The position numbers were made by a program, and so were the translations under genes. DNA of 64,000 nucleotides from Escherichia phage vB_EcoM_Kelasse: the sequence record MW749001.1. One strand, given 5' to 3'. Positions 12,046-16,820 of the stretch are shown here, piece after piece; the stretch's first letter is position 1, and every line of letters begins with the position of its first letter. The notes under the pieces were generated by a model that saw only the letters and a program-made list of their open reading frames with translations, searched no databases and had not been told where the DNA came from.

Positions 12046-12049
12046 CAAT

Positions 12050-12067
12050 GGGGACCGAAAGGTCCCC
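12050..12067 (+). terminator. Stem-loop terminator after gene 54
   Basis: ggggaccgaaaggtcccc followed by a T-rich tract. Confidence 0.5.
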
Positions 12068-12073
12068 ATATTT

Positions 12074-12364
12074 TTATTTACGGAATGAAATAAAAGCAGC
12101 AACTGAAGCAACTAAACTGTCTTCAATATAAACCTCAATTTTTACCGGAGCTTCTGACTCAAATTTACCTGTTACTACACCTTGGAAAATACTTTCAGTC
12201 TGTTCTGGCTTTGAAAAATTTTCAGAAGGAAAAATTCCGAACTTTTTATCTGTTCCAAAAATTTTGATAAATTCATCGTAAACTGCTTCATTAAAAGCAT
12301 TATCAGCAGGAATAACGCCTTCAACTACAAGTTCTTGACCTAAAAAGCGCAAAGAAGATTTCAT
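12074..12364 (-). CDS. Hypothetical 96-aa protein (alt.-3 position)
   Basis: ORF preceded by GAGGA Shine-Dalgarno and an early promoter. Confidence 0.5.
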   Translation of the reverse strand: MKSSLRFLGQELVVEGVIPADNAFNEAVYDEFIKIFGTDKKFGIFPSENFSKPEQTESIFQGVVTGKFESEAPVKIEVYIEDSLVASVAAFISFRK

Positions 12365-12395: not shown

Positions 12396-12425
12396 ACTAT
12401 AACACAACACGAGGGACTTGTAAAC
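12396..12425 (-). promoter_or_regulatory. Early promoter (GTTTACA, 17 bp, TGn-TATAGT), cassette copy A
   Basis: -35 at 12425..12419 and -10 at 12401..12396 on the minus strand; 54 bp identical to 27721..27774. Confidence 0.55.
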
Positions 12426-14482
12426 TACATTTTGAACTTTTTAGACATTCCGTTGATGTTAACCAAAGAAGCCAAGATTTGAGAAACTTCGTTTTCCTCT
12501 TCTTTTGATTCTTCTACAAGGAATTGATTAAATCCAGCCATTGGACGAACTTCACCAGTTTCCATTAGATGGTCGCCATCATATACCGATTCCTCTAATT
12601 GTTCAGAAGGAGGAACGATTGTACCTTCTATTAGATACTTGTTATAAGCAGTTTCTTTCATAAAGTACGTGCTCACTTTATTAATCTTCAGTAAAATTCC
12701 ACGCGGTAGAATAACTTCAGCTTCTGATGGAAATCCTGATAAATGACCTGGAACGATAACTTTGATTCGCTCAGCTCCTTTAATTACCATACCCACGCTA
12801 GTTTCAGCATCTTCATTAGCATATGTAGAATGACTACCCATATGCATCAAATCTTCTGCATCAACGGAACCTTCTCCTTCGCCAGAAAATACTGCGCCGG
12901 AATCATCTAGAGCCATATAGTTTTTACCATGCTCACCGAAGATATTTGGTTTAAGCGATGTGGATACGAAGTTCTTGAAATAGAACATTTTATTTTCAAT
13001 GTTATGACGCAAAGTTTTAAAGGTAACTTCTTGTCCACGGTAAAGTGTAGTTCCTGGAGGAAGAACTGAACCTTTAGCGAATGCAGAATCAAGCGTCTCA
13101 ATATGTTTAATAGCTCGTTCCATATATTCTTCACGGGTAGAATCTGGTTTACCCAAAAGGAACGAGTTCATTTCAACATATGAATCTGCACAATAATCTT
13201 CAATTACATCAGACTCAGCCTGAGTTAATCCTTTTGGAGTTACTTCAGTACTTGCATATTCATATGCCTGAGCGGCAGATTCATTAATCAATTTATAAAT
13301 GCCATTCATGACAAATTGAATAATAGCTGTCTTTTCATCTGGTGTAGCTTTAGAACCTTTAACTAAATCATTGATAATTTTCTTAATAACATCAAAGCTA
13401 TTAGAAATATTAATGTCAGCAAGATCGCTTAAAATTTTATCAGTTTTATAATCAAAGAATTCTTTATTCTTTAAATATTCTTGAGAACCTTGATATGTTA
13501 TATCGCTCTGCAGCTTGATAGATGGATCGCGTAAACGTGCATGGGCCAATGCAATATGATTTCGGAAGTTTTCTAGTTCATAATCGTTAGATTTAAAACG
13601 AGAAGCACTTCTCATACCACCGATAGCTCCTTTGCTAAAGTTTGAACCAATCTGAATAACGCCAGAGTTCATCGGACCTTCTGCTTTATATACCGGAACT
13701 TTAGATTCAAACTCTTGATATTTCTTAGCAGCGAAGCTATCACCCTGAAGTGAAGCATCAACAGTAGAATATTGAGCTTGTGCTGCTAATCGACGACTAA
13801 TTTTAGTTTTCTGAATAACAGCTTGATCCGTGCGCTTATCATTTTCTAAAGCAATAGAAGCAGCAACAGCGACAGCTTTAGGAACAGCATTACCTGTTTT
13901 AACGTCTACATAAACATCACCAACCTTTGATTCAACTTTTGTGAATAACTCAGTTGAAATAGGAGGTACACCTGGAATGTCTTCTAAATTGGCATTTTTA
14001 CGGTAAACCATAATATATGCATATTTCTTATCATAGTCCCAGATTTCCTTTAAAAGAACATATCGACCTGCTCCTTTAGTACGTACTAAACGGTCAGCAA
14101 TAACTTGCATTTGACGAGCTGCGCCATTTGTTTTACTCTTTAGTACGCGGAATAAGCATGCATCAATTTTATACTGTTTCATTGTTTGAAGAGCAGTATC
14201 AAAAACAGCATTAATGACGCCAATTGGATTTCCACCCAAGTTTTTAAGCTTAACTAATGATAGTTTCTCATTAACACCTATCATTACGATATGCATCATT
14301 TTGTCGCCTGGCTTAACGTTTTTATTCGTATCACCGCCAGAGGTGTATGTACAAAATCTAAATCCAGGAAGCACGCTTTCTTCACCGGCTTGAATAGCAA
14401 AAATTTGTGGTATTTTATGCTTAGGATTTAAGTTAACAACCGGCGCCGAAGCGCCGTCAAATAATTCTGTAATAAGTTCCAT
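12425..14482 (-). CDS. Alt-like ADP-ribosyltransferase paralog (685 aa)
   Basis: N-terminus MELITELFD... shared with Alt; candidate ART motifs YRGQ, FVSTSL, EAEVILPRG; starts 3 nt after the alt stop. Confidence 0.7.
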   Translation of the reverse strand: MELITELFDGASAPVVNLNPKHKIPQIFAIQAGEESVLPGFRFCTYTSGGDTNKNVKPGDKMMHIVMIGVNEKLSLVKLKNLGGNPIGVINAVFDTALQTMKQYKIDACLFRVLKSKTNGAARQMQVIADRLVRTKGAGRYVLLKEIWDYDKKYAYIMVYRKNANLEDIPGVPPISTELFTKVESKVGDVYVDVKTGNAVPKAVAVAASIALENDKRTDQAVIQKTKISRRLAAQAQYSTVDASLQGDSFAAKKYQEFESKVPVYKAEGPMNSGVIQIGSNFSKGAIGGMRSASRFKSNDYELENFRNHIALAHARLRDPSIKLQSDITYQGSQEYLKNKEFFDYKTDKILSDLADINISNSFDVIKKIINDLVKGSKATPDEKTAIIQFVMNGIYKLINESAAQAYEYASTEVTPKGLTQAESDVIEDYCADSYVEMNSFLLGKPDSTREEYMERAIKHIETLDSAFAKGSVLPPGTTLYRGQEVTFKTLRHNIENKMFYFKNFVSTSLKPNIFGEHGKNYMALDDSGAVFSGEGEGSVDAEDLMHMGSHSTYANEDAETSVGMVIKGAERIKVIVPGHLSGFPSEAEVILPRGILLKINKVSTYFMKETAYNKYLIEGTIVPPSEQLEESVYDGDHLMETGEVRPMAGFNQFLVEESKEEENEVSQILASLVNINGMSKKFKM

Positions 14483-14485
14483 GAT

Positions 14486-16579
14486 TTATCCTTGAACGAA
14501 CTTGTAAGGCATGTTTGTAATATCTATGCAAGACGCAATAATTCCAAGAGATGATTCTACTTTCTGTTTAACGTTTGATGAAACAAATGATGCAAAGTCA
14601 ACTCTGTCTTCTATTTCAATATCACCTGTCATTGCAACCAATTCACCAGTTTCCATTAAATGGTCTCCATCATAGATTACCGATTCGGTGAGCTCTTCCG
14701 TAGTCATAACTTCAGCTTGAATGAGTTTTGTATTATTAGATGTTGTTCCGTCATTATTAGAAGCATCAGTTATTTTATTAACTTTGACCATCAATCCACG
14801 CGGTAGAATAACTTCAGCTTCTGTTGCTATTCCGAGACTTCCTGGATATACAACATTAACTTTATGAGCTCCATCAATTGCCCATCCTATTTGAACTTTA
14901 ACGTATTCAGGATTTTCTTTATACGCTCTTATTTCGTTTGGATTAATAGTTATTCCTTCTTCATTTTTATCAACTGTTAATTCATTGCGAGCTTCTGGTT
15001 CTAAAAGACCAATACCAGCATGTGTAATTCCAAAACGTCCAAAAATGATAGGAGTTAAAGAAGTAGATACAAAATTTCTGAAGTAGAACACTTTATTTTT
15101 AACTAACGCTTCATATATAGGAGCAGTCATACTTTGAGCACGATAAACTGTAATGCCTTCTGGTATACGGTCACCATTTTCAAAAGCTGAATCTAAGTTA
15201 TTTATAGCAGATTCAATTTCTTTTTCACTCATTACATCATATCGTTCTGGATTGTAACGACCTAAAAGAAGATTATTGATGTCAGTATATCCTGAACCGC
15301 AATATTCTCTAATGCCACGCTTTTGTGATGGAGTATATTTAGAACCATCGCGGGCAATAGTAATATCAATCATTGGACCAGCACCAATTCCAGAAAAACT
15401 GTAAATCATTCGTTTGAGGAATTTAGTTTTTGCTGCGTTCCAGGAATTTTTAGTTATTTCTTCCCAGACTTCATCTGGTTGTCCTTTACGATTTTTATTA
15501 TGATTAGCAAGCCATTTATCTTTATAATCTTCAAAGAATTGATTTATAGCTGCTGCGTATTTCTCTAAACATTTTATTGAAGTAGTTGGTTCATTTTTAA
15601 TTGCATTAAAAATTACTTCTTTAATTTTTTCTGAAACTTCACCGACTTGACTCATTGGAAAGAATTTATAATCATAGTGAAGTTCATCTGCCGTTCCTTC
15701 AGCAATAATTTTTGCTGCCTTTGTTTTAGAAGCTAATGAATTAATTCCAATTTTCATTTCTTCTGCTTCGGGAATTAAAGGTGCAGTAGCTGGTTTATTA
15801 AAATTAGCTGCTGTAGATTCATACTTCTGGAATAATTCACTTTCAAATCTAGAAGATTCCAATGACTGGCTTTGTGCAATTGCTCTACGGGAAATTTTAA
15901 CTTTAACGATTACAGCTTGGTCAGAACGTTTATCATTTTCTTGCGCAATAGATGCTGCAATTGCTTCATTTTTGGTTACTTGAGCTCCAGTATCTTTATT
16001 AATATAAACATCACCGACCTTCGATTCAACCTTAGTAAAGAGCTCGGTACTAATTTCCGGAACCCCTGGAATGTCTTCTAGTGATACATTTTTGCGATGT
16101 ATAAGAATATATGCATACTTTTTATCATAATCCCAGAGTTCCTTAAGAAGGACGTATCTGCCACCTGAACGACTACGGATAAGTCTATCAGCAATAACTT
16201 GAATTTGTCGAGCTTGGCCAGCAGTTTTAGACTTAAGAATACGAAGCATACAAGCATCAATTTTATATTGACGCATTGTTTGCATTGCAACAGTAAAAAC
16301 TGAATTGATATAATTAATTGGGCTTGGACCAAGACCTTTTAATTTAGCAATTGAACCTTTAGCAGTTAATGTAAAAGGAACAATATGCATCATTTTGTCG
16401 CCCATTTTTAAATCACGATTAGTATCACCTCCAGATGTATAGGTACATAAACGAAAGCCTGGTTGTTCAATTGCATCATCAACATGAACTGAAAAAATTT
16501 GTGGTATTTTCTTCTTTGGATTTAAGTTTGTAATCGGAAGAGTAGTATCTTCGTCAAATAATTCTGTAATGAGTTCCAT
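14486..16579 (-). CDS. alt: Alt, packaged RNA polymerase ADP-ribosyltransferase
   Basis: 698-aa ORF (697 from the second Met); N-terminus matches remembered T4 Alt; YRAQ, FVSTSL, EAEVILPRG motifs. Confidence 0.8.
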   Translation of the reverse strand: MELITELFDEDTTLPITNLNPKKKIPQIFSVHVDDAIEQPGFRLCTYTSGGDTNRDLKMGDKMMHIVPFTLTAKGSIAKLKGLGPSPINYINSVFTVAMQTMRQYKIDACMLRILKSKTAGQARQIQVIADRLIRSRSGGRYVLLKELWDYDKKYAYILIHRKNVSLEDIPGVPEISTELFTKVESKVGDVYINKDTGAQVTKNEAIAASIAQENDKRSDQAVIVKVKISRRAIAQSQSLESSRFESELFQKYESTAANFNKPATAPLIPEAEEMKIGINSLASKTKAAKIIAEGTADELHYDYKFFPMSQVGEVSEKIKEVIFNAIKNEPTTSIKCLEKYAAAINQFFEDYKDKWLANHNKNRKGQPDEVWEEITKNSWNAAKTKFLKRMIYSFSGIGAGPMIDITIARDGSKYTPSQKRGIREYCGSGYTDINNLLLGRYNPERYDVMSEKEIESAINNLDSAFENGDRIPEGITVYRAQSMTAPIYEALVKNKVFYFRNFVSTSLTPIIFGRFGITHAGIGLLEPEARNELTVDKNEEGITINPNEIRAYKENPEYVKVQIGWAIDGAHKVNVVYPGSLGIATEAEVILPRGLMVKVNKITDASNNDGTTSNNTKLIQAEVMTTEELTESVIYDGDHLMETGELVAMTGDIEIEDRVDFASFVSSNVKQKVESSLGIIASCIDITNMPYKFVQG

Positions 16580-16602
16580 CATATCCTCTCTAGTGTTTAT
16601 TC

Positions 16603-16610
16603 TATTTATA
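16603..16610 (-). promoter_or_regulatory. Late promoter TATAAATA upstream of alt
   Basis: Minus-strand TATAAATA about 20 bp before the alt ATG, followed by GAGAGGA Shine-Dalgarno. Confidence 0.5.
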
Positions 16611-16615
16611 AAATT

Positions 16616-16633
16616 AAAGGCCCGAAGGCCTTT
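16616..16633 (-). terminator. C(UUCG)G hairpin with a U-rich tail
   Basis: aaaggcccgaaggccttt (plus strand), between ORF 16632..16820 and alt. Confidence 0.45.
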
Positions 16634-16820
16634 AATAATCTATTGGTAAGAGAGTACGATATATTTCAAACTTTGGACCTTTTTCATAGGCATCAAATGT
16701 TTCTGTGAATTTATTATAAGCATATGCATCTATAAATTCAATCATGATTTGTGATACAGAAGTAGAAACATCTCCACCTTCTTTTTGAGCCACGACAATT
16801 GTTTCTAAGTAAGCTTTCAT
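16632..16820 (-). CDS. Hypothetical 62-aa protein
   Basis: ORF between ligase and alt. Confidence 0.4.
   Translation of the reverse strand: MKAYLETIVVAQKEGGDVSTSVSQIMIEFIDAYAYNKFTETFDAYEKGPKFEIYRTLLPIDY

Follow-up and report, generated by a model that had tools for sequence, protein, structure and literature searches.

The window analysed here, a stretch of 64,000 nucleotides from Escherichia phage vB_EcoM_Kelasse (sequence record MW749001.1), is a segment of a Tequatrovirus (T4-like) genome that carries on its minus strand two adjacent genes, alt and alt2, encoding full-length paralogs of the Alt family of ADP-ribosyltransferases (ARTs). From the sequence it is near certain that Alt2 is intact, homologous to Alt and catalytically competent. 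We consider it probable that the pair forms a late operon whose products are two head-packaged, injected arginine ARTs with different targets. As a sequence observation the gene pair is ordinary, since the tandem arrangement is already known and annotated in hundreds of records, the second gene has already been named Alt2, and the alt2 of the window adds one more copy to a gene annotated before. Reports of alt duplication go back to 2003-2006.

An earlier note made from the letters of this DNA had described two back-to-back minus-strand open reading frames (ORFs), the second starting 3 nt after the stop of the first. Both statements held when the ORFs were read again: they extend from 14486 to 16582 (698 amino acids, aa) and from 12425 to 14482 (685 aa). 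The minus strand of the region carries, in order, alt.-3, alt2, alt, alt.1, the DNA ligase gene 30 and 30.1, while genes 48 and 54 lie on the plus strand of the window. The surrounding 5-kb region was 97.5-99.1% identical to that of other phages, with JLBYU31, FriedrichZschokke, RB14 and RB18 among the matches listed.

14486..16579, minus strand: alt, a Bas37/RB14-type head-packaged arginine ADP-ribosyltransferase of 697 aa when read from the second ATG, or 698 aa when read from 16582.
12425..14482, minus strand: alt2, encoding the second Alt paralog (685 aa); it bears the name 'alt.-2' in RB14 and 'Alt2' in BASEL phages.
14480-14488, minus strand: alt/alt2 junction TAA-atc-ATG, from sequence reading.

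Alt and Alt2 were collinear over their whole length, with 41-43% identity (BLASTP: 41% over the full length, E = 8e-159), and PHROG 802 ('Alt-like RNA polymerase ADP-ribosyltransferase') matched both proteins end to end with E values of 9e-257 to 1e-273. Neither protein had a model in NCBIfam. The paralogs shared a four-part layout, in which a short N-terminal propeptide ending in I-T-E and a conserved alpha/beta module of approximately 230 residues are followed by a variable helical region of approximately 180 residues, an R-S-ExE ART domain and, beyond an L-x-E site, an acidic C-terminal propeptide. The N-terminal third, which the earlier note had called near-identical, was found to be 68% identical at the protein level (161/237 residues). 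The divergence of the middle (16% identity) and the presence of the GDHLMETGE block in both proteins were as that note had described them. DNA identity in the N-terminal region was only approximately 60-79%, indicating that conservation there is at the protein level, and gene conversion was rejected as its cause on this ground.

13775..14482, minus strand: N-terminal module of Alt2 (residues 1-236), with 68% identity to its counterpart in Alt and a predicted local distance difference test score (pLDDT) of 84.7 in AlphaFold.
13238..13774, minus strand: divergent helical middle of Alt2, approximately residues 237-415, 16% identical to that of Alt.
12599..13237, minus strand: Alt2 ADP-ribosyltransferase domain, approximately residues 416-628.
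12428..12589, minus strand: predicted C-terminal propeptide of Alt2, residues 632-685, with the YDGDHLMETGE block, disordered in the model.

The AlphaFold2 model of Alt2 had a mean pLDDT of 75 and was composed of an alpha/beta N-terminal part (residues 1 to approximately 225), a helical middle (approximately 240-470), a mixed beta part (approximately 480-622) and a disordered tail (629-685) in which pLDDT was below 50. We propose that the N-terminal part is a head-targeting or core-binding module. A search with this module returned only Alt-like proteins, almost all of 560-790 aa. PF03496 was present in 8/8 scanned matches of that size, and two shorter odd matches carried no Pfam domain. Fusion of the module to effectors other than ARTs thus found no support at the sequence level. 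The Pfam search gave no model match on the module, and the protein database lists PF26846 on these proteins. When predicted viral structures were searched with Foldseek, remote matches were obtained (E values of 1e-8 to 1e-4, query-normalised template modelling score, TM-score, of approximately 0.4-0.6) to large uncharacterised proteins of unrelated myoviruses, some of them carrying annotated zeta-toxin, deaminase or ParB/Srx domains. These model-based matches suggest a lead to other fusions.

Both proteins matched PF03496 (ADPrib_exo_Tox) above the Pfam gathering threshold of 23.4 bits, with 129.9 bits for Alt and 71.9 bits for Alt2. The candidate ART motifs named in the earlier note were all located, in Alt as YRAQ (residues 479-482), STS (505-507) and EAEVILPRG (587-595) and in Alt2 as YRGQ (481-484), STS (507-509) and EAEVILPRG (587-595), and FVSTSL was present in both.

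15140..15142, minus strand: catalytic Arg480 of Alt (in YRAQ), by motif and alignment.
15059..15067, minus strand: S-T-S of Alt, residues 505-507, by motif and alignment.
14813..14821, minus strand: E-A-E of Alt, residues 587-589, the E-x-E motif of the ADP-ribosylating turn-turn (ARTT) loop.
13037-13039, minus strand: catalytic Arg of Alt2, R482 (in LYRGQ), the counterpart of R480 in Alt (in VYRAQ).
12956-12964, minus strand: STS of Alt2, residues 507-509, by motif and alignment.
12716-12724, minus strand: E587-A-E589 of Alt2, the E-x-E motif.

When the two proteins were aligned with T4 Alt, ModA and ModB, the invariant positions included the catalytic Arg of the aromatic-R motif on strand beta-1, Ser at the first position of S-T-S and the two Glu residues of E-x-E. 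Across a family alignment of 22 sequences, R482, S507, S509, E587 and E589 of Alt2 did not vary. Alt2 alone found no match among PDB sequences, and a family profile was required; with it, the YRG/YR and ExE motifs were aligned with those of C3cer (YRG, QYE) and BECa (YR, EYE). The Foldseek search of the Alt2 model against the PDB returned only R-S-E ADP-ribosyltransferases (Vis, C3, CDTa, iota, VIP2 and Certhrax), with E values from 3e-7 and a target-normalised TM-score of 0.6-0.69 for single-domain ART structures. In the ART region of the model pLDDT was mostly 76-91, and lower in loops. The earlier note had allowed that the 685-aa ORF might lack the ART fold or the catalytic residues; the fold is predicted and the residues are invariant. 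As modelled, Alt2 has an ART fold of the C3/Vis/iota type.

The E-x-E motif in the ARTT loop is associated with arginine specificity, and the QxE of C3 gives Asn specificity. C3 has QxE, whereas Alt and Alt2 have ExE, and we infer from these motifs that Alt2 is an active arginine ADP-ribosyltransferase. The bacterial enzymes Vis, C3bot, CDTa, iota Ia, VIP2 and Certhrax resemble Alt2 in ART fold and motif positions. In contrast, the C3-like and binary-toxin ARTs are secreted bacterial toxins with unrelated delivery domains and 14-20% identity to Alt2. ModA and ModB are proteins of approximately 200 aa that are expressed early and are not packaged. They share the R-S-ExE residues and the Alt/VIP2 clade with Alt2 (PMC5512222) but have neither its N-terminal module nor its middle region or propeptides, and identity to it within the ART core is 17-19%.

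T4 Alt (gpAlt, NP_049811) is the head-packaged NAD+:arginine ADP-ribosyltransferase of a family characterised by modification of RNA polymerase alpha and further host proteins, and it resembles Alt2 in length class, domain order, the R/STS/ExE residues, the ITE-6 site and an aligned C-terminal L-x-E. T4 alt also occupies the genomic position of the window pair, between gene 30/alt.1 and gene 54. Overall identity between Alt2 and T4 Alt was 45%, ranging from 67.5% over the N-terminal module through 36% over the ART core to 24% over the middle, and the E-x-E motif reads E-M-E in T4 Alt and E-A-E in both window proteins. T4 Alt is a component of the prohead core, present in approximately 40 copies per head and ejected with the DNA (PMC9026906). 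Mass spectrometry placed a cut by the prohead protease gp21 near each terminus, one following ITE-6 and the other following LTE-619; the second removes 63 C-terminal residues (PMC5694885).

The same signals were found in both window proteins. The N-terminal I-T-E that the earlier note had pointed out in the two ORFs is present at the motif level at residues 4-6 of each, and the sequence MELITE/LFD is identical in Alt2, Alt and T4 Alt. At the other end, L-T-E in Alt and L-E-E in Alt2 were the candidate sites, and E631 of Alt2 was invariant in 22 homologs.

16562..16570, minus strand: I-T-E of Alt, residues 4-6, N-terminal prohead-protease (gp21) cleavage motif.
14465-14473, minus strand: I-T-E of Alt2, residues 4-6, predicted N-terminal gp21 cleavage motif.
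14684..14692, minus strand: L-T-E of Alt, residues 630-632, aligned with the C-terminal gp21 site LTE-619 of T4 Alt.
12590..12598, minus strand: L-E-E of Alt2, residues 629-631, predicted C-terminal gp21 cleavage site.

Shortly beyond the site aligned with LTE-619 comes the GDHLMETGE block, in which there is another L-x-E (LME); the block thus falls within the propeptide that is removed in T4. At the motif level, the predicted mature proteins would be approximately 70 kDa for Alt and approximately 69 kDa for Alt2 (residues 7-631). By analogy with T4 Alt, we regard packaging of Alt2 in the head as likely, and Alt2 would then be injected into the host.

Functional data on both genes are available from a 2025 preprint that applied transposon mutagenesis (HIDEN-SEQ; doi 10.1101/2025.11.20.689424) to phage Bas37 (MZ501089), whose Alt and Alt2 were 97.6% and 99.3% identical, respectively, to those of the window. 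The main text of the preprint is confined to Alt (bas37_0033), with no mention of Alt2. According to that text, Alt counteracts the defence system Mokosh type I, and infection is rescued in trans by T4 Alt but not by Bas37 Alt (doi 10.1101/2025.11.20.689424). Even orthologs of Alt thus differ functionally. According to its supplementary tables, Alt2 (bas37_0032) was classed as 'intermediate' in K-12, with 116/164 TA sites hit and a mean count of 44.5, and Alt as 'non-essential', with 164/179 TA sites hit and a mean count of 203.6. In the clinical isolate CFE331, the log2 fold change was -1.56 for Alt (adjusted p reported as 0) and +0.12 for Alt2, which was not significant (preprint supplementary tables). 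In the presence of cloned Mokosh type I, the values were -7.74 for Alt and +1.32 for Alt2, both with adjusted p reported as 0, and the two genes were 2 of only 4 significant genes (preprint supplementary tables). These opposite phenotypes show that Alt and Alt2 are not interchangeable and that insertions in alt are not simply polar on alt2.

The 685-aa Alt2 was found by translated search at >=95% identity in approximately 396 phage records, including T2, RB10, RB14 and RB18. The orthologs were 97-100% identical at the protein level and stood in the same tandem arrangement. They are labelled 'alt.-2 hypothetical protein' in RB14 and 'ADP-ribosyltransferase Alt2' in Bas37, Bas39, Bas41 and Bas43, and in RefSeq Tequatrovirus records both genes of the pair are called 'Alt-like RNA polymerase ADP-ribosyltransferase'. 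When alt2 was compared among the window, RB14 and Bas37, 63-93 synonymous and 8-13 non-synonymous differences were counted. The ratio of non-synonymous to synonymous substitution rates (dN/dS) was 0.03-0.04, the same as or lower than that of alt, so that alt2 is under strong purifying selection.

Whether the T4 reference carries an intact second copy had been left open in the earlier note. It does not: only the remnant ORFs alt.-1 (NP_049810) and alt.-2 (NP_049809) are present. DNA identity of the T4 remnant (NC_000866, 123065-123450) was 96.2% with the initial 339 nt of the window alt2, compared to 69% with alt, and the reading frame of the remnant is split by a 1-bp deletion. PHROGs 23015 and 15247 also matched Alt2 better than Alt. 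Direct DNA alignment placed a second, much larger deletion between two short repeats.

12445..14143, minus strand: stretch of alt2 deleted in T4, 1,699 bp between CTAAAGAG and CTAAAAAG, which are CTAAA(G/A)AG repeats.

This deletion removes residues from approximately 114 to approximately 679, including the whole ART domain. The T4 sequence resumes 20 nt before the alt2 stop, and those last 20 nt and the downstream spacer are kept. The T4 record's own note describes alt.-1/alt.-2 as an old duplication of the first part of alt. In contrast, the alignments identify them as a deletion derivative of full-length alt2 and not as a partial duplication of alt. The deletion junction was found in 91 records, among them the natural isolates ACG-C40, JEP6 and Lv5cm. 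T6 did not have it, and its alt2 therefore appears to be intact.

The alt gene of the window differs from that of T4 in another way. Overall identity of window Alt was 72% with T4 Alt and 97.6% with Bas37 Alt. By region, identity to T4 Alt was 99.6% for residues 1-238, 34% for 239-420, 62.5% for 421-600 and 92.6% for the C-terminus. By this alignment, Alt of the window is a mosaic relative to T4 Alt, especially over 14780-15865. The Bas37/RB14-type Alt core occurs in approximately 350 records, and other records, such as YUEEL01, combine a T4-type Alt core with an intact Alt2. These comparisons indicate that the conserved N- and C-terminal delivery parts enclose no fewer than three effector cores, those of T4-type Alt, Bas37-type Alt and Alt2.

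The late box that the earlier note had placed before the first gene was found in that position, 20 nt upstream of the first alt ATG. The motif was not enriched in the window, where 11 matches were counted compared to 9.3 expected, that is, the chance level; its function as a promoter is therefore argued from its position and from the late expression of T4 Alt. After the box come a GAGG site and then two consecutive ATG codons (16577-16582), whose spacings from GAGG are 2 nt and 5 nt, respectively. The first ATG (698 aa) is annotated as the start in BASEL records and the second in T4 and RB14. The Alt protein is probably 697 aa long, from the second ATG, which matches the T4 start and has the better GAGG spacing.

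16603..16610, minus strand: TATAAATA, -10 box of a T4-type late promoter, lying just after a hairpin and 20 nt ahead of the first alt ATG.
16616..16633, minus strand: AAAGGCC-TTCG-GGCCTTT hairpin with AATTTT behind it, closing alt.1 and immediately preceding the alt promoter.
14489..14493, minus strand: AAGGA Shine-Dalgarno sequence for alt2, within the last codons of alt.

The hairpin was found by direct reading of the sequence and was absent from the output of the terminator scan; it is probably a terminator. A conserved terminator upstream of alt has been described in T4-like genomes (Nolan et al. 2006, PMC1524935). Downstream of alt and alt2, the terminator scan gave no terminator-like site before the one at 12048-12069. 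Probably, alt and alt2 constitute one late operon in Tequatrovirus of the T2/RB14/Bas37 type, and from the layout they would be co-transcribed. A second exact TATAAATA was noticed inside alt, at 15199-15206 on the minus strand, approximately 720 nt upstream of the alt2 start. It could be a late promoter or a chance occurrence, the motif being at chance frequency.

In the mechanism that we favour, a late transcript started at the TATAAATA box would span alt and alt2, and both proteins would enter the prohead core by means of their shared N-terminal and terminal modules. Both ends of Alt and of Alt2 would be trimmed there by the gp21 prohead protease. The two proteins would then enter the host together with the DNA and use NAD+ to ADP-ribosylate host proteins on arginines, and the substrate set of Alt2 would differ from that of Alt by virtue of the divergent middle region (16% identity) and of the loops between S-T-S and E-x-E. 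That the two proteins have distinct targets is the part of this mechanism to which we lean with some reserve.

Several points weigh against this mechanism. The alignment of the paralog middle regions, at 16% identity, is too weak to inform on substrate recognition. No late promoter adjoins the alt2 start, and with the TATAAATA motif at chance frequency the co-transcription of the pair is an inference. The Bas37 fitness data come from a pooled library reported in preprint supplementary tables, without clean-deletion follow-up for Alt2. Searches of the available literature turned up no virion proteomics, enzyme assay or target list for Alt2. Lastly, T4 and 90 other records have no alt2, and the gene is thus dispensable at least on some hosts.

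Three other explanations were weighed against the one in which both proteins are packaged and injected. Alt2 may be an active ART that is not packaged and in this resembles ModA and ModB more than Alt; it would act in the cell that produces the phage, at a late stage, or else would have to be newly synthesised first. The searchable literature gave no direct evidence for incorporation of Alt2 into virions, the sequence determinants of Alt packaging are experimentally undefined, and an N-terminal module only 68% identical to that of Alt leaves room for such a protein. Alt2, however, keeps the whole architecture of Alt, with both gp21 motifs at aligned positions and the N-terminal module of approximately 230 residues that is absent in ModA and ModB. 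Moreover, alt2 lies directly behind alt in a late-type context, and conserved cleavage sites would have no purpose outside the prohead. We consider an unpackaged Alt2 unlikely.

The head itself is the basis of another explanation, in which Alt2 is mainly a competitor or modulator of Alt loading, or a pseudoenzyme, and its effect is to set the dose of injected Alt. The shared N-terminal module, the small number of Alt copies in T4 heads (only approximately 40) and the 2.5-fold enrichment of Alt2 insertions under Mokosh type I, where Alt is indispensable, are in keeping with this. Nevertheless, all catalytic residues are invariant and purifying selection acts strongly on the entire gene, the part for the ART domain included. 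In K-12 without Mokosh, Alt2 insertions were under-represented and Alt insertions neutral, which points to a function of Alt2 that does not depend on Alt; besides, competition and catalysis are not mutually exclusive. A role confined to loading is therefore quite improbable. The same selection and transposon data bear on the idea that alt2 is a redundant duplicate heading for loss, with no function distinct from that of Alt. It is true that alt2 is deleted in T4 and 90 other records with viability kept, and that Alt itself is non-essential in the laboratory (PMC9026906). Against this, dN/dS of alt2 is as low as that of alt, the approximately 396 intact copies are 97-100% identical in protein, the identity of only 43% between the paralogs speaks for an old duplication in which both copies have been maintained, and the phenotypes of Alt and Alt2 in Bas37 are opposite. 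A decaying duplicate was rejected on the dN/dS values and these phenotypes, and redundancy is very improbable.

A wider version of the packaged and injected Alt2 can be put forward only tentatively, and we hold it to be rather doubtful as a whole. It states that Alt2 is a second injected ART with host targets of its own and at the same time a competitor for limited sites in the prohead core, that the Alt:Alt2 ratio tunes counter-defence, and that the N-terminal module is a general delivery adaptor. If such competition occurs, phages without Alt2 would inject more Alt and evade Mokosh type I better, which could account for the enrichment of Alt2 insertions under that system as well as for the spread of the T4-type deletion allele (T4 and 90 other records). 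If the module is an adaptor, effector cassettes (the T4-type Alt, Bas37-type Alt and Alt2 cores) would have been swapped onto it, and its remote structural relatives may be fused to other toxin-like domains in unrelated myoviruses.

The remaining features of the region lie outside the paralog pair. Upstream of alt, the product of alt.1 (window positions 16632-16820, 62 aa) matched Pfam PF24647 'Phage blade protein' with E = 7.5e-29. Downstream of alt2 is the small, conserved gene alt.-3, whose ortholog bas37_0031 showed a log2 fold change of -2.70 (adjusted p = 0.02) for K-12 compared to CFT073 in the HIDEN-SEQ supplement; this hints at a host-specific role.

12074..12364, minus strand: alt.-3, 96 aa, DUF5498, downstream neighbour of the pair.
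12396..12424, minus strand: TTTACA-17-TATAGT, a sigma-70/T4 early-type promoter-like site between alt2 and alt.-3, a consensus match only.
12048..12069, no strand assigned: bidirectional terminator hairpin between alt.-3 and gene 54, from the terminator scan.

A tandem full-length paralog of alt is likewise known in a T4-like phage of a different genus, the Aeromonas phage 44RR, as ORF187c (Nolan et al. 2006, PMC1524935). The searchable literature yielded no functional study of 'Alt2' or 'alt.-2'. What is known of phage ADP-ribosylation derives almost entirely from T4, which among the Tequatrovirus genomes searched belongs to the minority that lost Alt2 (91 compared to approximately 396 records), and T4 cannot inform on Alt2 because it has lost the gene. 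In addition to Alt, ModA and ModB, a fourth ART would thus be delivered or expressed by the majority of natural T-even phages, T2 and apparently T6 among them. From the transposon data there are indications that Alt2 contributes to fitness on K-12 and that its behaviour under Mokosh type I is opposite to that of Alt; the latter contrast is a concrete and testable lead.

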